Shown in pieces: positions 18,369-36,797 of a DNA stretch of 64,000 nucleotides. The stretch lies in sequence record PZ386955.1. The stretch is one strand, 5' to 3'. Each line of letters starts with the position of its first letter. Position 1 is the first letter of the stretch. A program made the translations under genes and the position numbers. The notes beneath the pieces were generated by a model. The model saw nothing but the letters and a program-made list of their open reading frames with translations. It searched no databases and was not told the DNA's origin. The stretch comes from a phage.

Positions 18369-21244
18369 TGTCAAGAATTAAGCACAGAATTGACAATGTT
18401 TTTCAATTGATCGATGGACATATTCAGTTCTTAGATCGTAATACAGGTTTAACTGTAGATCCTACAGTGCAACACTATGTATTAAACCCACAAAACGTTC
18501 TAGCTAATAACAGACACTTTATAAACTGGACTGCTCAAGAAGGGCAACCAAACGGGGATGCTACAACAGAAGGTCAATCCGTGCTTATTCTTGGTTGCGC
18601 TTATGCATACCTAGCTTCCGGCGATACAAAGTATTTAGACTCTGCTAAAAAATATTGGCAAGCCTATATAGATTACTTCTTTGGTGGTCAACCTATCCCA
18701 GATCCGCCAGCAAAGTATCGCCCTAACTGGATTATTAACGGTAAAGAACCACGTCTTGCACATTATCCTCTTACAGATGATGGCTACCCTACACACGGAG
18801 GTTTTAAGGGTAGCTTAATGACGTGGACTAACGGTAGAACAGTTATTCCTCATGGTGCTCCACATTGGGGAGAATACCTTGACAAAGCATGGTTTGCTTT
18901 TAATGGTAATCTAGGATGGAACTCTGTAAACGCTACAGTATATGCTGTTAATGCAGATGGTACAACAGATTGGTCTAAGAAGGGAGATCAATGGGATGTT
19001 GATTGGATCATTGATCGTCTAGGACGTAAAGTTGACTGGGATGGGAATATCTTAGAAGAAGGTTTTCCAACATCTCAATACGGAACAGTTCAACTAAAAA
19101 ATACTTCTGTAAACGGTACATATAAATTTAACTACGCGACTTGTAACCCTGTTGAACACGGTGGTTATTTAATGGAGCGTAACACTATGTGGCATAACAG
19201 ACCAGTTAACGTTCCGGTAGAAATGGGCTTTCAGGATAATGCGTCAGATGCCGAAACTTGGTGGTGTGATGCTAATTACCTGATGTACCAAATTACAGGA
19301 GAAAGAAAATATTGGCTATGCTGGCAGTCTTCACTGTTAGTGTGTCAAGATTACTCAAACATTGATATGTTTGATAAATTCTTCCGTAAGTCTACATATG
19401 CAACTATTCCGTTTACAGATGGCATCTCTTACGATTATTCGTACCCATCTACAGCGATACCTAAATATTCAAGAGATACTTTAGGTTATATTGTTATTAG
19501 ACAAGATGTTGCTGCTCAAACAACATTAGAACAGCAATCTATTTGGTTTAAAGTTGATCAGAACTCTAAGTTACGAGTCCAGTTTCAAGGTGTAGATGAC
19601 GCAGGACATGGTATTCTTTTCCGTCCAGAGTTGGAATTAAGTAAGACCAAAGATGAAAATAACACAGTAACTTACCGCTGTGGCTTACCACTAGGTACAG
19701 CTAATATGACAAGCATGGATATTCCACTATCCAGCTTTATGAGAAGTACCCCTCCAAATGGTGGAACATATATTATCGCAGATCCGCGAATTATTGTTGA
19801 CTGGGGTGACAATACTGTGGTACAATATAAGTATGTAACAGGTATTGCTGGAACTAATAATGACCAGATTGTTACTGCATCAATGGATACGGATGGTGGT
19901 GTTACTGTTGGTTTTTGGTTAACTCCTACATCAAAAGCTAATGTTAAGTCTATTACATATAGAACATATGAAGATGACTTTAACATGACTATCACGGATG
20001 CTCAAGGTTGGAGATGGTGGGCTATGCTGCCTAAAACGCAAGGGGCATGGAGTACGAAGACTTTATCAGCCTCTGCTTTTAAGTTAAGTGCTTACCAGCC
20101 TAATCATCCAGAAACAGATCCTAAACCTTCAGCAATAAATCTTACTGCTGTAGATCAGGTAAATTTAGTTCTTGATACGGCTCCTGTCAATGGTTTAACA
20201 GGAACAATAGATTTCTATTGTATTAACGATGTACCTGAAAGATATTCGTCATCTTCTGGTGATGATTATACCATGTACTTCCGTATTACTGTACAGGCTT
20301 CAAGTCCTCATACTGCTAAGTTAGGTGATTGTACTATTATTGACTATAAGTTAAATAGTCTTAATTACACACCAGGAATAATTCCATTCTCTAATATCAG
20401 TGACCCAAACACTGCATTATACGATGGATGGCGTGGTATTCCATACCCAGGATACCAGTATCCTTCCTTATACTGTTTCGCAGGTAGGGATATTGATTGG
20501 ACACGTTTAAACAACAGTATTGATTTCTTGTATGATGCTCAAATGTGGTTTTATAACACGTTTGATCCTGTGATGCCTGGGCCTATGGCACAAGCATATG
20601 TGTGGGATCGTTGGGATGCAAGGAAATACGGTGAACCTAATACGTTTACAATGAAACACTGGAATGAAAAAGCGTGGGATGGTTATGAAGCTCGTGCATT
20701 CTACTGTGCTTGTCATGCTGTATACGAACTTGTACAAAGAGGAGAAACACCTCCTGAAAAACTAGTAACTGTTTGTAAAAATTGGATCAACTACCTTAAA
20801 TGGTTCCAAGACAATAATGATGGAAGAACACCAACTATCTTTAACCCAGATGGTACAGTTCTTGCGCCTATAGATGACTTTACTAGTCATATGTCTGCAC
20901 TGTTTATGGCGGGTTGTTCAATCATGGGCTTGGCAGGTTATGATTCACAAATTCCAAACATTGGTATTGTAGCAGACAGATGTTTTGATCTGATTCAGCA
21001 AAACTATATTGTGCTTTCCCCTAACCATCCGATGAATGGTTCCTGGAGTGTTGCACCGCGTCCAGATTCAGATAACGGAATGTTCTTTGGTTTCCATGCT
21101 GGAGAACTATTACGTGGTTTTGGTTTATATGCTTTATATCGTAAACTAAATCCTCAAAACGCCTTACCAATTTTGGACAATAGTAACATACCGACACTAA
21201 CTGTTCTAACTATGAATGATATTAGTGTTGATGTAACCAAATAA
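18368..21244 (+). CDS. Large virion protein (958 aa), probable baseplate/fibre component
   Basis: Long Trp/Tyr-rich ORF in the baseplate-fibre block, coupled to the upstream gene (ATGA overlap). Confidence 0.45.
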   Translation: MSRIKHRIDNVFQLIDGHIQFLDRNTGLTVDPTVQHYVLNPQNVLANNRHFINWTAQEGQPNGDATTEGQSVLILGCAYAYLASGDTKYLDSAKKYWQAYIDYFFGGQPIPDPPAKYRPNWIINGKEPRLAHYPLTDDGYPTHGGFKGSLMTWTNGRTVIPHGAPHWGEYLDKAWFAFNGNLGWNSVNATVYAVNADGTTDWSKKGDQWDVDWIIDRLGRKVDWDGNILEEGFPTSQYGTVQLKNTSVNGTYKFNYATCNPVEHGGYLMERNTMWHNRPVNVPVEMGFQDNASDAETWWCDANYLMYQITGERKYWLCWQSSLLVCQDYSNIDMFDKFFRKSTYATIPFTDGISYDYSYPSTAIPKYSRDTLGYIVIRQDVAAQTTLEQQSIWFKVDQNSKLRVQFQGVDDAGHGILFRPELELSKTKDENNTVTYRCGLPLGTANMTSMDIPLSSFMRSTPPNGGTYIIADPRIIVDWGDNTVVQYKYVTGIAGTNNDQIVTASMDTDGGVTVGFWLTPTSKANVKSITYRTYEDDFNMTITDAQGWRWWAMLPKTQGAWSTKTLSASAFKLSAYQPNHPETDPKPSAINLTAVDQVNLVLDTAPVNGLTGTIDFYCINDVPERYSSSSGDDYTMYFRITVQASSPHTAKLGDCTIIDYKLNSLNYTPGIIPFSNISDPNTALYDGWRGIPYPGYQYPSLYCFAGRDIDWTRLNNSIDFLYDAQMWFYNTFDPVMPGPMAQAYVWDRWDARKYGEPNTFTMKHWNEKAWDGYEARAFYCACHAVYELVQRGETPPEKLVTVCKNWINYLKWFQDNNDGRTPTIFNPDGTVLAPIDDFTSHMSALFMAGCSIMGLAGYDSQIPNIGIVADRCFDLIQQNYIVLSPNHPMNGSWSVAPRPDSDNGMFFGFHAGELLRGFGLYALYRKLNPQNALPILDNSNIPTLTVLTMNDISVDVTK

Positions 21245-21252
21245 GGAAAATA

Positions 21253-23412
21253 ATGAAACAGGCTATTTTTACTGTAACTCGAAATACGAGAGTAAATGCC
21301 AGTTCATTCAGCTATAAGACCGTCGATGGAACGGCGGTCGCTGGTAGAGATTATGTAGCTAAACAGGGAACAGTAACGTTCCCTTCTGATGCAGATTCTG
21401 CTACTGTAGTGGTTGATGTATATGAACGTCCGGCAAACTCTTTAGATCTTTATTTTACTCTTGAGATTACTAGCATAAGTCAAAATAACATGATGATCAA
21501 CGAAGAAATTCGTTGTGTTATTACGACTGATCAATCGAATACAACCCCGCTAACTTGGCCTGTTGTGAAGTCTAGAATGTTTGATCCTAAGTTTTGGACA
21601 ATAGATTCTCAAGCAACAGAAAGTTGTTCTATTATCTCTAATGGTGATTCTTTCACAGCAAGAATGGTTAATAGGACAGTGGCTGGTCTTGCTGGGATTA
21701 TTTGGTCAACTTACGATAAATATGATCACAAAGGATTAGGCTACCAAGAACATTCTGACTTAAGTAAAGAGAAACTTTGGTTTAAAATGGAACTTAGTCA
21801 AGGTGTTCCTGGATTAAAAGAAGAAAAATTAATACCATCCTTAACAGTGACACTGAAGGATGAAACAGTTCATTATGTATCTCTAAACTTTTATGCAGAA
21901 GAAGTTTCAGAAGATGGTAAGACAGCAACAATCAAACTAGATTTCTCAAATTTAAAATCTGGGCCAGAAAATGATATTGTTGTTGACACTACACAGATAG
22001 ATAATATGTTCTTCTCCTTGATCTCCACAAGGTATCAAGAAATTGAAGATATTATTCCTGTAGACAATGTGGATCTTTCCTTTAAGTTTACCATACTGGA
22101 GCCTGATACTGGTTACAGTATGATGAATATGGGTAATTTAAATGTTCCGGCGCACACCATAAGAATGTGTACATCTTATGATGATATGTATAACCTAACC
22201 CCGGAGCGAGTTATTTCTAACACCTATAGATTAGGTTATAGAGATATGATTAACCATTATAATGGTATGTCACATTATTATCAATTTAGTTGGGACGCTG
22301 GCTCTAATAAATGGGCTTTGAACAGAACAGAATATTTAAACCCAGCAACAGAAGCCTGGTTTGATAACTTCCACGCTAATGCAAAAGCTATGGGCTACAC
22401 AGTAATGAACTCCTTAAGTTTTGAACTTATGAGTACAGTGTGTCCCGTAGAATGGGTACAACATACTTGGAATGATGATCTGGCTGCTACAGGTTATGAG
22501 CCACCAAGTTATGTTTTATCTCCTTCAATTGATGAAGGGATGAATTATTTACAAGGTGTAATAAATAAGATAGCTTCTATATCCGCTGCTAATGATCTTC
22601 CGGTTATTATTCAGGTTGGTGAACCGTGGTGGTGGTATAACACAGCTACCAATCTCCCGTGTATTTATGATTATACAACCAAAGTTGCATTTAATAATGA
22701 AACTGGATTGTATGCACAAGATGTTGGTACAGTTAAAAATTATAAAACTGGTACACCATATGATGAATATTATGCATTCCTATCTAAAACATTAGGACTG
22801 CGTGTTGCTAAATTTGCAACAGATACCAGATTAGCATACCCTGGAGCGAAAGTTACATTGTTACCATTTGTACCATCCATCTTAGGTAATGGTATGATGG
22901 AGTTTGTTAACTTCCCTAAAGATTATTATATTCCAGAAAACTTTGACTTTTATTGTTCAGAATGTTATGACTGGTTGTTGGAAGGCAAGATGGAAAGATC
23001 TTTCGACGCTATCACAATACCTAATGAGCAACTAGGTTTTAGTTATGATAAGATACATTATCTTGCAGGGTTTGTTCCAGACGCAACTCTAGCACCATTA
23101 TATGGCTTTGATCCTGAATCAAACTATAGAACATATTTGTGGAAAATGATTATAGGCAATATTGTCTTGAATGACCAGAAGTTTGTTGGTTTATATCAAT
23201 ACATATGGGCTTACCCACAAATAATGCATGATTCAATAACTGTTCTTAATTCAAAATCCCAAGTGTTTTATATGGGTAATGTGCCTTTGAATTGCTACTT
23301 GCAAGATATCACTCTTAAACAGGTAAATGTTGAGATTGCCACTATAAGTGGAATTACATTAGCCACTAAATCTGGAGAAGATTTAGTAACAACACAAAAA
23401 TTTTATATATAG
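21253..23412 (+). CDS. Large virion protein (719 aa), probable fibre/spike component
   Basis: Long Trp-rich ORF in the fibre block; no recognisable catalytic motif. Confidence 0.45.
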   Translation: MKQAIFTVTRNTRVNASSFSYKTVDGTAVAGRDYVAKQGTVTFPSDADSATVVVDVYERPANSLDLYFTLEITSISQNNMMINEEIRCVITTDQSNTTPLTWPVVKSRMFDPKFWTIDSQATESCSIISNGDSFTARMVNRTVAGLAGIIWSTYDKYDHKGLGYQEHSDLSKEKLWFKMELSQGVPGLKEEKLIPSLTVTLKDETVHYVSLNFYAEEVSEDGKTATIKLDFSNLKSGPENDIVVDTTQIDNMFFSLISTRYQEIEDIIPVDNVDLSFKFTILEPDTGYSMMNMGNLNVPAHTIRMCTSYDDMYNLTPERVISNTYRLGYRDMINHYNGMSHYYQFSWDAGSNKWALNRTEYLNPATEAWFDNFHANAKAMGYTVMNSLSFELMSTVCPVEWVQHTWNDDLAATGYEPPSYVLSPSIDEGMNYLQGVINKIASISAANDLPVIIQVGEPWWWYNTATNLPCIYDYTTKVAFNNETGLYAQDVGTVKNYKTGTPYDEYYAFLSKTLGLRVAKFATDTRLAYPGAKVTLLPFVPSILGNGMMEFVNFPKDYYIPENFDFYCSECYDWLLEGKMERSFDAITIPNEQLGFSYDKIHYLAGFVPDATLAPLYGFDPESNYRTYLWKMIIGNIVLNDQKFVGLYQYIWAYPQIMHDSITVLNSKSQVFYMGNVPLNCYLQDITLKQVNVEIATISGITLATKSGEDLVTTQKFYI

Positions 23413-23420
23413 GAGTAAAA

Positions 23421-25019
23421 ATGTCAACTACAATTACTAATTTACCCGAAACATCAAAAGTTAATGGTTCTGATTACCTGGTTTTAGACCAACCTGATAA
23501 GACTGTTAAAAGCACAGTTTCCAACTTTCTTACTGACACTGGGGTGGTTTTAGCCACCCAGTTGAAAGATACAGATGGTGCACAGTTGGTTGGATTCGGC
23601 CCTGGGCATACAGTTGCGGACTTAAAAAGTCCGACCACGGCAAACGGTGATGCCTTAATTCCAGTTGTTCAGCCGTACCCAAATGCTGTAGTAACCACTG
23701 TTCATGAGAAGATGGACGAGATTAAAACTGTAGTAGATTGGGGAGCCGTCAGTGACGTAGAGTCATCATCGGCTGCACAAAAGATGGTTGATGATACGGG
23801 AACATTAATTGTACCTGCTGGATTTAATTTGGTTGCTAAAAATATAAATATCTCCAGCGCCGACAAAGTGTTCATTTACGGAAAAATGACTTTACCGTCT
23901 GGATGTGTAGATTTTGACCGAGCCTTGTATGCGTACAGCAACACGCGGGGTCTTCAGGTGTATATTAACGAAATAGACGGTAATAAGGCTGGTCAGTCCG
24001 GCGATAACGTAGGCACACATTTATTGTATTTAATACAATGCCAGAAAGTGAATGTATACGTTAAGTACGCGCACAGTAACTACTTCAGCCGTACCTATAC
24101 GCCTGTACCGTCCCCCGATGGATTCCGTACTGAATCAGCTGGTGCCTTGTTCTTCCATGAATGCCACTACTCTCAATTCATCGCTGACAGAATTGAGAAT
24201 TGGGGTCGTGAAGGTATTATGGCTAATAAAACCAACTACTCCGTAATGGCGCTAGGTTTAGCGTTAGGTGATGCTAGTTCCAACGGGCAGGAGTACAGCG
24301 GCTTCCAATTTTCCGGTGACTACAATAACCTGCTATATGCTAATGTAGAGAACTCCGGTGCAAGCGGGGGTAGCTTTGACTGTCGTTATAGCCATGCTGG
24401 TACTATCAAGGTTATTAGAAACAAGTACTTTGGAAGCGTCGGATTTGGCCATTCTAATTCCCCTGCTGAGTACAACGTGATTGATTGTATCATTAGCATT
24501 AACTCCGCTGCTAACGGTTTCCAGTTTGCAGCCAACAGCAATAACAACCGAGTACTATCTGCAACCGTAATAAGTCCAGCGGCTGTAGGCATAAACCAGT
24601 CAGACGGCGCTGATAACAATAGTGTTGACAACTTCACAGTTAAAGACCCAGGAGCCTATCACGTAACAGCTTTTAACTCTACGTTAACGCTAACTAACGG
24701 CGACTTAACAAGCAACGCCAACAACAAGACCAGGCTAAACGCCGTAGGGACAGGAAAGTTCATACTCAGAAACGTTCGCTTAGACCCAGAAAAACCACTC
24801 CATATGCGCGCCTTCAATGGTTTAGCCGGAAACTCTAGGGCAGATATAGTAGACGCAAACATAAATGTTTGGTCACATATAATTATTGTACCCGCTAATG
24901 CAAATGGGGCGTTGGCAAATGCCTATGTAGCAGCAGTTAATAACGGCTCTTGCACTATAGCTACCGCTTCTGGTTCTCCTGCTGGGTCGGGGGCTAGTTT
25001 TAGGTATATGGTGGTTTAA
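23421..25019 (+). CDS. Tailspike / receptor-binding protein (beta-helix-like), compositionally distinct
   Basis: N-terminal anchor motif (ITNLPETSKVNGSDYLVLDQPDKTVKSTVS); Asn/Gly/Ser-rich repeats; central and C-terminal part visibly richer in G/C than neighbours. Confidence 0.5.
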   Translation: MSTTITNLPETSKVNGSDYLVLDQPDKTVKSTVSNFLTDTGVVLATQLKDTDGAQLVGFGPGHTVADLKSPTTANGDALIPVVQPYPNAVVTTVHEKMDEIKTVVDWGAVSDVESSSAAQKMVDDTGTLIVPAGFNLVAKNINISSADKVFIYGKMTLPSGCVDFDRALYAYSNTRGLQVYINEIDGNKAGQSGDNVGTHLLYLIQCQKVNVYVKYAHSNYFSRTYTPVPSPDGFRTESAGALFFHECHYSQFIADRIENWGREGIMANKTNYSVMALGLALGDASSNGQEYSGFQFSGDYNNLLYANVENSGASGGSFDCRYSHAGTIKVIRNKYFGSVGFGHSNSPAEYNVIDCIISINSAANGFQFAANSNNNRVLSATVISPAAVGINQSDGADNNSVDNFTVKDPGAYHVTAFNSTLTLTNGDLTSNANNKTRLNAVGTGKFILRNVRLDPEKPLHMRAFNGLAGNSRADIVDANINVWSHIIIVPANANGALANAYVAAVNNGSCTIATASGSPAGSGASFRYMVV

Positions 25020-31944: not shown

Positions 31945-33906
31945 GTGATTTTAACACGTCCAAATAGTGCCATTGCAGACATGGTAGAGTCTCGCTATAG
32001 AAAGCGTAGAAGTTTTGCAAGTGGTTTTACCTTAAGAGATGCTCGTGAAGCATTGCTCTTTGAAACTGACGGTAACTACTATCAGTGGAAAGGTTCTCTA
32101 CCTAAAGTTGTACCTGCTAACTCTACTCCTACATCTACTGGAGGGATTTCAGATACAGCTTGGAAAAATGTGGGTAATGCAGATGACATTGCTCAAATAG
32201 AATCAGAATTAGATGCTATTGAAGCTGAAATTGAAGATCTTAGAGAATCCATCCCAGAAGCTGGTAAATCAGCTTACCAGATTGCCGTAGACAATGGTTT
32301 CCAAGGTACTGAGACACAGTGGTTGGCTTCTTTAAAAGGTGATCCAGGTGCTCCATTAAAGCTACTAGGGACGCTATCTAATACCAACCAATTACCTACA
32401 ACTGGAAACAATGCAGGGGATGCATGGATTGTAGGCGAGAATATGTATGCTTGGGATGGTACTGCTTGGAGAAAAGTAAACTCACAGGGGCCAGAAGGTA
32501 AATCAGCTTATCAAGTTTGGCTTGCAGCAGGAAACCAAGGTACAGAACTAGACTATCTTGCTGCAATTAAAGGTGATAAAGGGGAGCCTGGCCCAGAGGG
32601 GCCACAAGGTGTGCCAGGTAACAATGCTAATGGTTTTGATTACCAAGGTGCAGCTAATTCCGTTTCAGATCTTCCTTCTGCATCTCATGGAAACACATCT
32701 CAAGCATGGAGTATTGGTACATATCTATACGTGTCAAACGGTGTAGAATGGATCAATATGGGTGCTATAGTGGGGCCAAAAGGAGATAAAGGCGACAAAG
32801 GAGATAAGGGTAACACTGGTGATTCAGCTTATCAAGTCTGGTTAAACGCTGGTAACGTTGGTACTATTGACGAATATATTGCCTCTCTGAAAGGAGAAAA
32901 AGGTGATAAGGGAGACAAGGGTGATCAAGGTGAACAGGGTATACAAGGCTTGACGGGGCCAACTGGTGCAGGGTTGACCATTATTGATATTCTGACTAAC
33001 ACTTCTGAACTACCACAAACTGGAGAAGATGGTGATGGTTATCTAATCAATAATGAACTTTGGGTCTGGTTGCAAGGAGCCACAGAGTGGACAAATGTTG
33101 GTCGTTTAGCTGGTACTCCAATCACTGCAAAAGGACACGTTGCGTCTGCAAGTGCGCTTCCTCCTACAGCCAATTACGGTGATGCTTATCTGACGGAAGA
33201 TACAGGTCATCTTTACATTTACACCTATAATGAACAAACTCAAACTGCTGAATATGTAGATATGGGTAGTTTGAAAGGTGATAAGGGTGAAAAAGGTGAC
33301 GCTGGTACTAACGGTACAGACGGTGCAACTTGGATTGTTAAAACAACAGATCCAATCTCTAGTGATGGTAAACAAGGGGATTATGCCTTTAATATCTCCA
33401 CTGGCGAGGTGTTCTTAAAAACATCTGCAACTGTCTGGACTTCTCAAGGTACACTACCTAGCATTACAGATGCACCTAGTGATGGTAAAATTTATGCTCG
33501 TAAAGATGGAGCATGGGAAGAACTAACTAGTTCTGTAGATGGTCAAGATATAGTTCCAACAAAAGTAACAACTAATTTTATAGAGGTTACAGCATATACC
33601 AACAACTCTGTTACAGGTGACTGGACACCTCCAGGAACACATAACATGAATGTGTTGAATCTTACTGGTAACTCTACTATAAAAGCATGGCCTGGTGTCG
33701 AAGATAGCACAAAACCTAAACCATTCTCTGCAATAGTTTATCTTATCCAAGATGCCACTGGAGGTCGTACTGTTACTTTAGATCCATCTTACAAAGTAAT
33801 TGGTTCTAGTGATATTAATACAGATCCTAACGGAGTAACAATACTACAACTAACATATTGTGGTGTTGGCGATTACGTGGATGCTATTGTTGCTAAACGC
33901 ACATAA
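31945..33906 (+). CDS. Tail fibre with collagen-like G-X-Y repeats and three phage tail-fibre repeats
   Basis: GPKGDKGDKGDKGNTGD, KGEKGDKGDKGDQGEQGIQGLTGPTGAG, KGDKGEKGDAGTNGTDG; repeated ~30-aa unit SAYQ..(V/I)..G(F/N).GT...(W/Y)L...KG occurs three times. Confidence 0.7.
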   Translation: MILTRPNSAIADMVESRYRKRRSFASGFTLRDAREALLFETDGNYYQWKGSLPKVVPANSTPTSTGGISDTAWKNVGNADDIAQIESELDAIEAEIEDLRESIPEAGKSAYQIAVDNGFQGTETQWLASLKGDPGAPLKLLGTLSNTNQLPTTGNNAGDAWIVGENMYAWDGTAWRKVNSQGPEGKSAYQVWLAAGNQGTELDYLAAIKGDKGEPGPEGPQGVPGNNANGFDYQGAANSVSDLPSASHGNTSQAWSIGTYLYVSNGVEWINMGAIVGPKGDKGDKGDKGNTGDSAYQVWLNAGNVGTIDEYIASLKGEKGDKGDKGDQGEQGIQGLTGPTGAGLTIIDILTNTSELPQTGEDGDGYLINNELWVWLQGATEWTNVGRLAGTPITAKGHVASASALPPTANYGDAYLTEDTGHLYIYTYNEQTQTAEYVDMGSLKGDKGEKGDAGTNGTDGATWIVKTTDPISSDGKQGDYAFNISTGEVFLKTSATVWTSQGTLPSITDAPSDGKIYARKDGAWEELTSSVDGQDIVPTKVTTNFIEVTAYTNNSVTGDWTPPGTHNMNVLNLTGNSTIKAWPGVEDSTKPKPFSAIVYLIQDATGGRTVTLDPSYKVIGSSDINTDPNGVTILQLTYCGVGDYVDAIVAKRT

Positions 33907-33909
33907 TCA

Positions 33910-33934
33910 AAGCCCCTTCGGGGGCTTATTATTT
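33910..33934 (+). terminator. Rho-independent terminator
   Basis: AAGCCCC-TTCG-GGGGCTT hairpin followed by ATTATTT. Confidence 0.55.
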
Positions 33935-33945
33935 AAGGAGATTAA

Positions 33946-36765
33946 ATGTATCCTATTCCTTTATTTATGTCAACAACATCAGCTTCAGTAGTAACAGCTA
34001 CATCTATAACCACTTCCTCTATTGGTATTGCAATAGTTGGTAGTAAAAAGCAACTGACATACACAGTTTCACCGGAAGATGGTGCGTTATTTGATATAGC
34101 TTTTTCATCTTCAGATAATACCAAAATGGTTATAGATAATAGTGGTATGATGGAGTTTGTTGCCGAAGGTGGTTTTGATGCAATAATGACAGCTAAAAAT
34201 AATTTAGGTGCTGTCTTAACTGATCAATCTGGTGGTTATGCTTCAGAATTAAGCGTGTACACTGAAAGTCTATCAGCTATGGATGTAGGCACTACTCAAC
34301 AGTTGGTTGCTACAATCAGTCCAGAAGGTGCTAAAGATCTTCCAGACATGGTAATTACGTACACCACAACAGATCCAGAAGTAGCTACTGTAAGCCCTAC
34401 AGGATTAATAACTGCTCTTAAAGATGGTAATTGCCGTATAGGTTGTACTGCAACGTATCAAGGAACAGTGGTGGCCTCTGATAGTTCTTATTTAGGTGTT
34501 AATGCTATTCCTGTCATTTCTAATGTAACAGCCGTGGCAAACAGCTATGGAGACGTTCGTGTTGCTTGGGATGTAGCTGATCCGCTAGATGGTGATACTT
34601 ATACTGTAGAAGTATTAGATTTAAGTAATAATAGTGTCCAGTGGACTACAACAACCACGAATACTTACGCTTACTTTGATATCTCTGACTCTATTCCTCT
34701 TTATGGGTTTGCTCCAACATACCTTAAAATTAGCGTTAAGAGCACCAAAGCAGCAGCCGTTATCTTTAATAACTCAATAGCTACAGATGATTCATTCATT
34801 AAAGAAGTTATTGTCTTTGCTGGACAAGATAACGTAAATGCACACTTTACAGAATTATCTGGTGCAAATAAAGCAGCAATGAGTAGCACAACAGTCCGTA
34901 ATGCATATGCTACGCAACGTGGTTTAGCAAATGCTGAAGTTCTTCCGTTAAATACAGCTTCTGGATCATCAGCAGCAGATAAATATGCTGACGATAAAGC
35001 TGGAACAGGTACACCAGACAACTACTGGTATGATCTGGATAACACAGCAGATGGGCCATGCTTAACTAACTTTATCACTAAAGTCACACCTTATGCAAGT
35101 AAGGTTAAAGCAATTGTTTGGGGACAAGGTGAAAATGATGCTGTATCAGCATCTTCAACTGTTGCAGGTAGGTACAGTAACACTACACGTTACCATGATG
35201 CTACGATAGCTATCTTTGATAAGATGCGTACAATAGTTCCTGCTTCTCAAGCAAAAATTGTTTGGCAGATCCTAGGACGTTCTTATTTATATGGTGTAGA
35301 AGTTAATGGTGTGGATTGGCAGAAGTACAGAAATGTACAAAGAACCATCTCTACAGCACGTGATGATGTTATCATTGGTTCTTGGGTAGATGGTGCTGAA
35401 CGTTACAGTGGCTATGTTTATGAAGAAGGTATTGATGGTCGTATCCATTATGTTTCTTCTGTATACCAAACAGCAGCTACAAAACTTGCTAAATCGGCAG
35501 CAGACGGTACAGACTTAACATCAACGTCACCTGTTTGGGTTGATATGGCTGTTCCAACTGGAGCAACAGCTACTTCCCAATCTAATCAAGATACAATTTT
35601 AGCATGGGATGCTCAAGGCTATAGTAAACACTACTTCCGTAATATTAACGTCTTAACAGCATCTGTATTAACGGAACAAACGCTTAATACGAACAGCTAT
35701 ACGTTTACCTATGCAGATCAAGTAGCACAATATGGTTTTGCAGCAGGAACTACTATATTTGATGTTGCATATTATGACGAAGCAAATGATGTGTTATCTC
35801 CTTTAGTACGTTTTAATGTTAACGTTACAGCAGGAACCGAAGAAGATAAACCTGTCGTGATGGACTATGATTTGACGCAAGAAACTCTCCCATCAGATGT
35901 TAAGGTTAATGGTGGGAACTCTTTTGCTCGTGCTTCTGGAGATAAACTTGTAGCCACTAACACCTTGGTTGCTCCGTTGGAGTATGTTGGTACTACCCCT
36001 GTAGGTAGACGTGTAACAGCTAACACAGCTACACAAATTTTTGTCAACAACGCCTTAACAAGTGCAAGCCCGTGGGTAAAGACCAACTTAACTGTTGCAG
36101 CTTCATCTGATAACTCTCCGGCTGGAACTACTGCTAATGTATTCAAATTAACTCCGACTACAACCTCTAGTAGTCATATCTTAACTGCGACATATACTAA
36201 CGCGTACAACATATCTGCCGGACGTAACTGGTCTGCCTCTGTTTTCTTGAAAGCGAATGGGATTACTAAGGCCAAACTAAGATTAAAAGCAGGAACTGAA
36301 GTTAATGAGGGTACTTTTGATTTAGCAGCAGGTACATTCACAGGAAGTGAAGCTAATATTATATCTATGGGCAACGGTTGGTATCGTGCTATTCTGCATA
36401 AAACAGGGATAGCCAAACAGTCCTCCATAAGTTTTGAAATAATTGCCTTGGATGCAACTGGTGCGGAGATTTTCGCTGGAGATGGTACTAGTAACCTTGC
36501 AGTTTGGTTGCCACAGCTTGAAGGTGCTTCTACAGGAGAAACATCAAAAGCTGGATCGCCTTATGTCTGCACATATCCTGGAAATTTAGGAGGAGTATCC
36601 TTCACTATACCAAGGAACGGACATACTGGTGTGGATGTTTACTATTCCAACGGAGACGTTGTTCGTGACGTATTCTCTGGTACGGCATCTACTTGGACAA
36701 TAAACTACTCCAGCTTGTATGATTGGGGATCAGTCTTTATTACAGGTTTGAAATATTACGACTAA
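33946..36765 (+). CDS. Tail fibre/spike with Ig-like region and SGNH-type esterase-like domain
   Basis: VIVFAGQDNVNAH (GQSN-like block) and KAIVWGQGENDA (W.QGE.D block) in the order seen in SGNH acetylesterases; 939 aa. Confidence 0.5.
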   Translation: MYPIPLFMSTTSASVVTATSITTSSIGIAIVGSKKQLTYTVSPEDGALFDIAFSSSDNTKMVIDNSGMMEFVAEGGFDAIMTAKNNLGAVLTDQSGGYASELSVYTESLSAMDVGTTQQLVATISPEGAKDLPDMVITYTTTDPEVATVSPTGLITALKDGNCRIGCTATYQGTVVASDSSYLGVNAIPVISNVTAVANSYGDVRVAWDVADPLDGDTYTVEVLDLSNNSVQWTTTTTNTYAYFDISDSIPLYGFAPTYLKISVKSTKAAAVIFNNSIATDDSFIKEVIVFAGQDNVNAHFTELSGANKAAMSSTTVRNAYATQRGLANAEVLPLNTASGSSAADKYADDKAGTGTPDNYWYDLDNTADGPCLTNFITKVTPYASKVKAIVWGQGENDAVSASSTVAGRYSNTTRYHDATIAIFDKMRTIVPASQAKIVWQILGRSYLYGVEVNGVDWQKYRNVQRTISTARDDVIIGSWVDGAERYSGYVYEEGIDGRIHYVSSVYQTAATKLAKSAADGTDLTSTSPVWVDMAVPTGATATSQSNQDTILAWDAQGYSKHYFRNINVLTASVLTEQTLNTNSYTFTYADQVAQYGFAAGTTIFDVAYYDEANDVLSPLVRFNVNVTAGTEEDKPVVMDYDLTQETLPSDVKVNGGNSFARASGDKLVATNTLVAPLEYVGTTPVGRRVTANTATQIFVNNALTSASPWVKTNLTVAASSDNSPAGTTANVFKLTPTTTSSSHILTATYTNAYNISAGRNWSASVFLKANGITKAKLRLKAGTEVNEGTFDLAAGTFTGSEANIISMGNGWYRAILHKTGIAKQSSISFEIIALDATGAEIFAGDGTSNLAVWLPQLEGASTGETSKAGSPYVCTYPGNLGGVSFTIPRNGHTGVDVYYSNGDVVRDVFSGTASTWTINYSSLYDWGSVFITGLKYYD

Positions 36766-36770
36766 TAAAA

Positions 36771-36797
36771 AAGGAGCCATTAGGCTCCTTTTCTTTT
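36771..36797. terminator. Bidirectional terminator at the boundary between structural (+) and replication (-) modules
   Basis: GGAGCC-ATTA-GGCTCC hairpin flanked by an A-run upstream and TTTTCTTTT downstream; convergent genes on both sides. Confidence 0.6.

Follow-up and report, generated by a model that had tools for sequence, protein, structure and literature searches.

An SGNH-fold domain with aspartate in place of the catalytic serine in a putative modular virion adhesin of a phi92-like coliphage

We analysed a stretch of 64,000 nucleotides of phage DNA (sequence record PZ386955.1; this whole stretch is called the window), which comes from a phi92-like Escherichia coli myovirus of the genus Justusliebigvirus, and studied one complete open reading frame (ORF) in it, at 33946-36765 on the + strand, encoding a protein of 939 amino acids (aa). 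The protein carries a true SGNH/SASA-type domain in which aspartate stands where the esterases of this family have their nucleophile serine. Judged from sequence and predicted structure, the protein is in our favoured reading (probability about 0.65) a modular adhesin at the periphery of the virion, whose pseudo-esterase module would bind a glycan without hydrolysing it; the loss of activity, the binding role and the position in the virion are what we infer. An earlier note on this DNA had described a tail fibre protein with two esterase-like blocks, VIVFAGQDNVNAH followed by KAIVWGQGENDA, that might deacetylate a surface polysaccharide receptor. The ORF and both blocks are present in that order; the proposed chemistry fared less well, as set out below.

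The SGNH/SASA fold and its active site

Taken alone, the protein did not reach the gathering threshold of the Pfam SASA family (PF03629; 13.4 bits against a cut-off of 24.8, E-value 0.06), and AlphaFold2 (AF2) run on the single sequence gave no fold (predicted local distance difference test score, pLDDT, 30). Both results would fit a chance motif match or a sequencing artefact in a protein with no esterase-type domain. The relatives, however, told otherwise. An exhaustive HMMER (phmmer) search with aa 264-632 as query returned 82 relatives and placed 21 of these at E<1e-30 (a word-indexed homologue search gave 3 proteins), and most of the 82 carry the canonical GQSN ... W.QGE.D ... H(Y/F) blocks. 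We aligned the window domain with 27 segments of these relatives (alignment A1, 28 sequences), and 20 of the 28 matched Pfam SASA at E<=0.01 (best E-value 2.5e-13). The A1 profile matched phage N4 gp65 (PDB 9LC0/9YF4) in five stretches with an E-value of 1.3e-120, the SASA-type esterases 2APJ (2.4e-4) and 1ZMB (1.3e-3), and the CE20 enzyme FI8 (0.024). AF2 with A1 reached a pLDDT of 93.4 and a predicted template modelling (TM) score of 0.88; in the model, aa 287-520 form an α/β domain, with a flavodoxin-like α/β/α fold and a parallel β-sheet, and aa 541-626 a β-sandwich. Foldseek returned N4 gp65 (E-value 1.6e-23, TM score 0.75), XAC1771 (6e-10) and SIAE (4e-7).

Because the SASA matches of the relatives, the profile search, the AF2 model and Foldseek agree, the SGNH/SASA fold and the homology are established; the earlier note had named the lack of such a fold as evidence against its reading, and the fold was found. 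An artefact at the deviating residue is likewise refuted. The codon of Asp295 (GAT, 34828-34830) differs from every serine codon at at least two positions, and the 24-aa block I peptide that contains it is identical in 55 independent Justusliebigvirus genomes, so Asp295 is no sequencing error.

The blocks of the active site are the following:

34807-34845, + strand: block I, VIVFAGQDNVNAH, aa 288-300; reads GQDN and aligns to GQSNM of 2APJ and 1ZMB
34957-34974, + strand: block II, ASGSSA, with Gly340 as oxyanion-hole glycine; agrees with the family consensus xGSS/xGGS
35107-35142, + strand: block III, KAIVWGQGENDA, aa 388-399; Gln394 followed by G-E-N-D
35434-35451, + strand: block V, DGRIHY, with His501 at the general-base position; His in 55 of 77 family copies

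SASA, CE6 and CE20 enzymes use the Ser of GQSNM as nucleophile, the block V His as base, and the QGE Gln together with the block II Gly as oxyanion hole (PMC10792757; PMC12313940), the role of the block III Gln being taken from PMC12313940. Asp295 occupies the column of the catalytic GQSN serine. The remaining blocks are in place: ASGSSA aligns with SGGTAI of 2APJ and EGGSSI of 1ZMB (PMC10792757), and WGQGENDA (aa 392-399) holds the complete QGExD motif, Gln394 corresponding to the CE6/CE20-type oxyanion residue. The earlier match to GQSN and W.QGE.D thus stands for block III, which is canonical, but not for block I, whose only deviation falls on the catalytic nucleophile. Its spacing of about 110 residues also needs correction, the two blocks starting 100 residues apart (108 in 1ZMB and 129 in 2APJ; PMC10792757). 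In 2APJ and 1ZMB, the block V sequence is D-x-(L/I)-H (PMC10792757). Here Asp497 lies at His-4, versus His-3 in the classical triad. The nearest GQSN relatives likewise have no Asp at His-3, so the arrangement may be of the dyad type. Nine pocket residues are kept in Justusliebigvirus, namely Gln294, Asn296, Gly340, Gln394, Gly395, Glu396, Asn397, Asp398 and His501.

Family history and build of the protein

Among the 77 domain copies aligned, Ser stands in the nucleophile column of 58, and 37 carry the full Ser/Gln/His set. GQDN occurs in the window protein and in the relative P0004, which is 87% identical. In a neighbour-joining tree this GQDN clade is sister to a GGDN clade from Avunavirus phages (Av-05, 19-1-2; 47% identity) with a bootstrap of 96/100, and the outgroups read GQSN or GQAN. 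The simplest history would be one Ser-to-Asp change in the common ancestor of the two clades, after which catalysis was no longer selected. The Avunavirus clade shares the Asp but has changed Gln294 to Gly, Gly340 to Ala or Thr and Gln394 to Leu, and some of its members (P0002 and phage 19-1-2) also His501 to Gln; the domain is kept at full length despite this decay of the active site.

The serine has been lost independently elsewhere in the family, giving GQAN, GQMN, GQVN and GDAN (P0009, P0016, P0050, P0035), and an INSL class keeps the Ser and His columns and has lost the block III Gln. We further noticed that N4-like 160-kDa proteins carry the large 'INSL...GPGE...WVHY' class. Phage tail proteins commonly have pseudo-esterase copies. 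The nearest Ser-bearing relatives are P0007 and P0008, at 42-47% identity.

Within Justusliebigvirus, the ratio of nonsynonymous to synonymous polymorphism (pN/pS) in the domain is 0.09-0.31 (small counts), so the domain is not decaying there; a pseudogene in the window genome was rejected, the ratio being well below 1. The domain is under purifying selection and functional, though probably not as a hydrolase. An acetyltransferase role was also rejected; SGNH transferases of the PatB/OatA type need the Ser too.

The domain lies within a string of modules:

33946-36765, + strand: complete ORF, 939 aa, from the ORF list; closes the + strand structural/adsorption cluster
33946-34035, + strand: N-terminal ~30 residues, MYPIPLFMSTTSASVV..., possibly a virion-attachment peptide
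34033-34515, + strand: two Ig-like (Big_2) domains, aa ~30-190; Pfam Big_2 E-value 1.1e-13 in two stretches
34519-34785, + strand: first β-sandwich (FN3-like), aa ~192-280, from an internal repeat and the N4 gp65 alignment
34804-35505, + strand: SGNH/SASA-fold α/β domain, aa 287-520, with Asp replacing the nucleophile Ser
35566-35823, + strand: second β-sandwich (FN3-like), aa 541-626; AF2 strands at model residues 278-363
35863-36756, + strand: exchangeable C-terminal domain, aa ~640-937, homologous to the GTA (gene transfer agent) spike and Sf11 gp17
36769-36792, + strand: terminator-like hairpin 3' of the stop codon, where + and - strand genes converge

The Ig-like region is also matched by Ig-domain tail and head proteins of PHROG and by the Ig-like region of PDB 6n1a. 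The first β-sandwich resembles aa ~521-600, around the second; this internal similarity was read through the near-identical P0004, query residues 258-337 matching its aa 173-257. N4 gp65 aligns to the first β-sandwich with its aa 619-700 and holds the type of the second three times (aa 1081-1365). The C-terminal domain matched PDB 9occ_C (Sf11 gp17; E-value 1.4e-19) and 6tb9 (Rcc01080; 4e-14), and aa 694-863 scored 67.8 bits with the NCBIfam family GTA_spike_fiber (NF048003; cut-off 36). It is presumed to be the receptor-binding end. Many orthologues stop at aa ~628 or diverge after aa ~848, and the C-terminal domain is absent or replaced in many of them.

Module shuffling is clear in the comparison with a differently built protein of the Phapecoctavirus Schickermooser (MK373788, 1714-4389, 891 aa). 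It has in common with the window protein the N-terminal peptide (MFPIPIFTIMTSTGVV, which resembles MYPIPLFMSTTSASVV...) and, at 62% and 63% identity respectively, the Big_2 pair and the C-terminal GTA-spike-type domain. An unrelated glycine-rich region of ~400 aa precedes its Big_2 pair, which runs straight into the C-terminal domain. Because this protein has the Big_2 pair and the C-terminal domain without the FN3-SGNH-FN3 cassette, the cassette is an optional insert.

Near-identical proteins (98-99% identity) are encoded by phages Antha, Paula, alia and PaulScherrer/Bas60 (bas60_0037). Public labels for such Justusliebigvirus genes are 'tail protein' and 'lateral tail fiber protein', with 'tail carbohydrate esterase' in two records (phages ALITA and KMB37) and 'non-contractile tail sheath' in one; the protein matches PHROG 32204 and 11922, 'tail protein'. 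The name 'tail fibre' comes from annotation alone, and domain scans gave no coiled-coil, β-helix, collagen, trimerisation or fibre-shaft signature in the ORF. A search for related loci in viral contigs gave only two, both near-identical, and the BME3 and Eryne papers report no functional data for the protein. Two candidates from the BASEL collection were ruled out: Bas63, which has a published cryo-electron microscopy (cryo-EM) structure, is a Felixounavirus and not a relative, and the 'glycan deacetylase' tail fibre of the BASEL paper is an N4 gp64-like protein.

In phi92 (FR775895.2), the orthologue is split by two frame changes at ~8609-8779 into gp152 and gp153, and the block I region falls between the two annotated coding sequences, in the third frame. 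This is either a sequencing error in the 2012 record or a true disruption of the gene. The gene is also found, at 98.8-99% protein identity to E. coli Justusliebigvirus, in three or four 'Campylobacter phage' records of ~146 kb (A150, C3, A145; MG065639, MG065656, MG065645), which look like mislabelled or contaminating coliphage genomes.

A terminator is annotated in Paula and PATM at the site matching 36769-36792, and GC skew changes sign at ~36-38 kb. Another terminator-like hairpin, at 33910-33927, separates the gene from the ORF at 31945-33906. The downstream DNA polymerase gene is annotated as intein-containing in PaulScherrer (20661-23975, 3315 nt) and is shorter in ALITA (20175-22754, 2580 nt).

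Binding, architecture or catalysis

In the favoured reading, the 939-aa protein would be a beads-on-a-string virion protein of the phi92-like adsorption apparatus, built from an N-terminal anchor, two Ig-like domains, a β-sandwich, the SGNH/SASA domain, a second β-sandwich and a swappable C-terminal domain of the GTA-spike-fibre type. Its SGNH domain would descend from genuine carbohydrate acetylesterases with GQSN, QGExD and His blocks, and is most likely no longer a hydrolase because the ancestor shared with the Avunavirus phages would have exchanged the nucleophile Ser for Asp. Purifying selection would maintain it for a rigid structural role, for ligand binding or for both, N4 gp65 being the parallel. 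We prefer a lectin-like hold on a surface glycan without cleavage, because the remaining acetyl pocket is intact in Justusliebigvirus, and the exchangeable C-terminal domain would be the main source of host specificity. The homology of that domain to peripheral appendage and fibre domains, together with its swapping among orthologues, supports the pseudo-esterase reading.

Several observations weigh against it. All catalytic-site residues but the Ser are kept in Justusliebigvirus, which fits a working site with another nucleophile or general base. The public label 'tail carbohydrate esterase' points the same way, although it is a homology label only, and the 2026 cryo-EM paper on phi92 makes no mention of gp152 or gp153. 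Since the sister lineage has lost pocket residues, the domain can persist without a pocket, and its retention there favours a purely structural over a lectin role. This last point bears on the possibility, doubtful in our view, that the SGNH-like domain and its β-sandwiches form a purely architectural module, a spacer or protein-protein interface, leaving receptor contact to the Ig-like and C-terminal domains. The same cassette forms the sheath wall of N4 gp65, the Avunavirus orthologues keep the domain without the pocket residues, and the Phapecoctavirus protein dispenses with the insert altogether. Such a role, however, leaves unexplained why the nine pocket residues are kept in spite of ~55% divergence of the domain from its nearest relatives with Ser, and in the many orthologues that stop after the cassette (aa ~628) the cassette is itself the distal end.

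Catalysis by Asp295 seems improbable to us. The residue would act as nucleophile, through a mixed-anhydride intermediate, or as general base, aided by His501 and the oxyanion hole, and the domain would deacetylate an E. coli surface glycan. In its favour, blocks II and III and the block V His are canonical and conserved in every Justusliebigvirus checked, and the domain is under purifying selection. The Ser-bearing P0007 and P0008 look like working esterases; P0007, from an uncultured phage, is moreover the last gene of a structural cluster directly ahead of the lysis genes. SGNH subfamilies also tolerate an unusual acid side, Ser-His dyads and water-mediated triads (PMC12313940). Against this, we came across no SGNH hydrolase with an Asp nucleophile, and among 30 SGNH-fold structures surveyed, the Oskar domain, which is non-enzymatic, is alone in having Asp in the place of the nucleophile (PMC10792757). 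In the sister clade, which has the Asp too, the oxyanion Gly and Gln have since gone, as has the His in part; this would not be expected if Asp-based catalysis were the selected function. For N4 gp65, the closest solved relative, the published description is that of a sheath and receptor-binding protein and mentions no enzymatic role (PMC13434306), and neither of its two SGNH-like copies has the full catalytic set.

These findings, together with the Ser-to-Asp exchange shared by the 55 genomes of the genus, leave the receptor deacetylation that the earlier note proposed unsupported. Its picture of an esterase-type tail protein was right about the true SGNH/SASA domain, about blocks II and III and the block V His, and about the setting in a phage adsorption gene cluster, and went too far on catalytic function.

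The protein and its esterase-like annotation are already public; new are the Ser-to-Asp change, the phylogenetic pattern and the module link to the N4 sheath. Because the serine is missing, the label 'tail carbohydrate esterase' in ALITA and KMB37, and any host-range or enzyme-mining inference drawn from it, is probably wrong. Should Asp295 nevertheless be catalytic, the domain would be, as far as we found, the first natural SGNH-fold esterase with a carboxylate for the Ser nucleophile, and a fold that has been studied very thoroughly would gain a new way of catalysis. The milder option is a 'dead' sialate or carbohydrate-acetylesterase pocket turned lectin, common to the N4 sheath and to phi92-like side appendages. 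The family as a whole, with repeated independent losses of catalysis in an esterase fold kept as a building block, offers a natural series for pseudo-enzyme evolution.

Comparison with known systems

Phage adsorption proteins are well known to carry SGNH domains, some of them active (G7C gp63.1) and others structural (N4 gp65). The closest solved relative of the window protein is N4 gp65 (PDB 9LC0, 9YF4, 9YF5), the non-contractile tail sheath and receptor-binding protein, which forms a sheath heterodimer with gp64 (PMC13434306). The two proteins have in common the cassette of SGNH-like α/β domain and β-sandwich, which gave pairwise BLASTP E-values of 3e-14 and 2e-13. They differ in copy number, N4 gp65 having two α/β copies and at least three β-sandwich repeats and the window protein one SGNH-like domain and two β-sandwiches. 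The Big_2 domains and the GTA-spike-type C-terminus are found in the window protein and not in N4 gp65, which begins instead with an NCTSP_N domain and a TIM barrel start that pairs with gp64. N4 gp65 also forms a six-fold sheath around a short tail tube and binds NfrA, whereas the window phage is a contractile-tailed myovirus.

Both SGNH-like copies of N4 gp65 (NC_008720; aa 420-660 and 712-965) are without the full catalytic set: copy 1 reads GESQ / GQGDQD and has no His, and copy 2 reads INQF, has no QGE and carries Tyr in place of the His. The N4 copies have thus lost more of the site than the window protein, which has lost only the Ser. Neither the N4 papers that we found nor a full-text search for 'gp65' with 'SGNH' mentions an SGNH-like domain in gp65.

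NCTSP_N and the TIM barrel start are absent from the 939-aa ORF and lie on a 719-aa ORF at 21253-23412 on the + strand, which encodes Calx-beta, NCTSP_N (Pfam, 4e-21) and, at full length, the 'non-contractile tail sheath TIM barrel' (1e-81), and matches N4 gp64 (BLASTP, 6e-33). With NCTSP_N and the complete barrel both present, this ORF corresponds to the N-terminus of N4 gp65 plus gp64; the SGNH cassette lies ~10 kb downstream, on the 939-aa ORF. A 653-aa ORF at 31945-33906 on the + strand, homologous to phi92 gp151, has an N-terminal Tail_spike_N domain (TSP1/Gp66-type, 3.5e-21) as well as G-x-y repeats of collagen type, and matches fibritin-C weakly. The modules of the N4 sheath heterodimer are therefore split differently over proteins in this myovirus. 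The 'Swiss-army-knife' adsorption apparatus of phi92-like phages is thereby tied to the N4 sheath, with homologues of gp64, gp65 and the gp66 N-terminus present in a different distribution, and this link could help to assign the unassigned fibre densities in phi92 cryo-EM maps.

The SASA/CE6-like 'putative acetylxylan esterase-like' family (PF03629; 1ZMB, 2APJ; NanS 3PT5; the CE20 enzyme XAC1771 7KMM, SIAE) differs from the window protein in its GQSNM Ser, which is here Asp, and in its acid Asp at His-3; the Pfam score of the window protein is below threshold and its domain is embedded in a phage structural protein. The SGNH fibres and tailspikes that deacetylate receptors (G7C gp63.1, 4QNL; those of Pectobacterium phage Possum, and of Moo19 and B2) form a separate SGNH subfamily, much more distant from the window protein than N4 gp65 or 1ZMB. 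Their Ser-His-Asp triad is reportedly complete and their deacetylase activity demonstrated; the window protein does not share that site, Asp295 replacing the Ser.

A precedent for a Ser-to-Asp pseudo-esterase is the OSK domain of Oskar (PDB 5A4A), whose SGNH-like fold carries Asp where the nucleophile would stand and does not act as a hydrolase (PMC10792757). This eukaryotic domain binds RNA, lacks the triad entirely and has no specific homology or context in common with the window protein. The C-terminal ~300 aa, finally, are homologous to the head-spike fibre Rcc01080 of RcGTA (6TB9) and to the gp17 appendage of Shigella phage Sf11 (9OCC). Very different N-terminal parts bear it in the three proteins, and in all three it is peripheral and distal.

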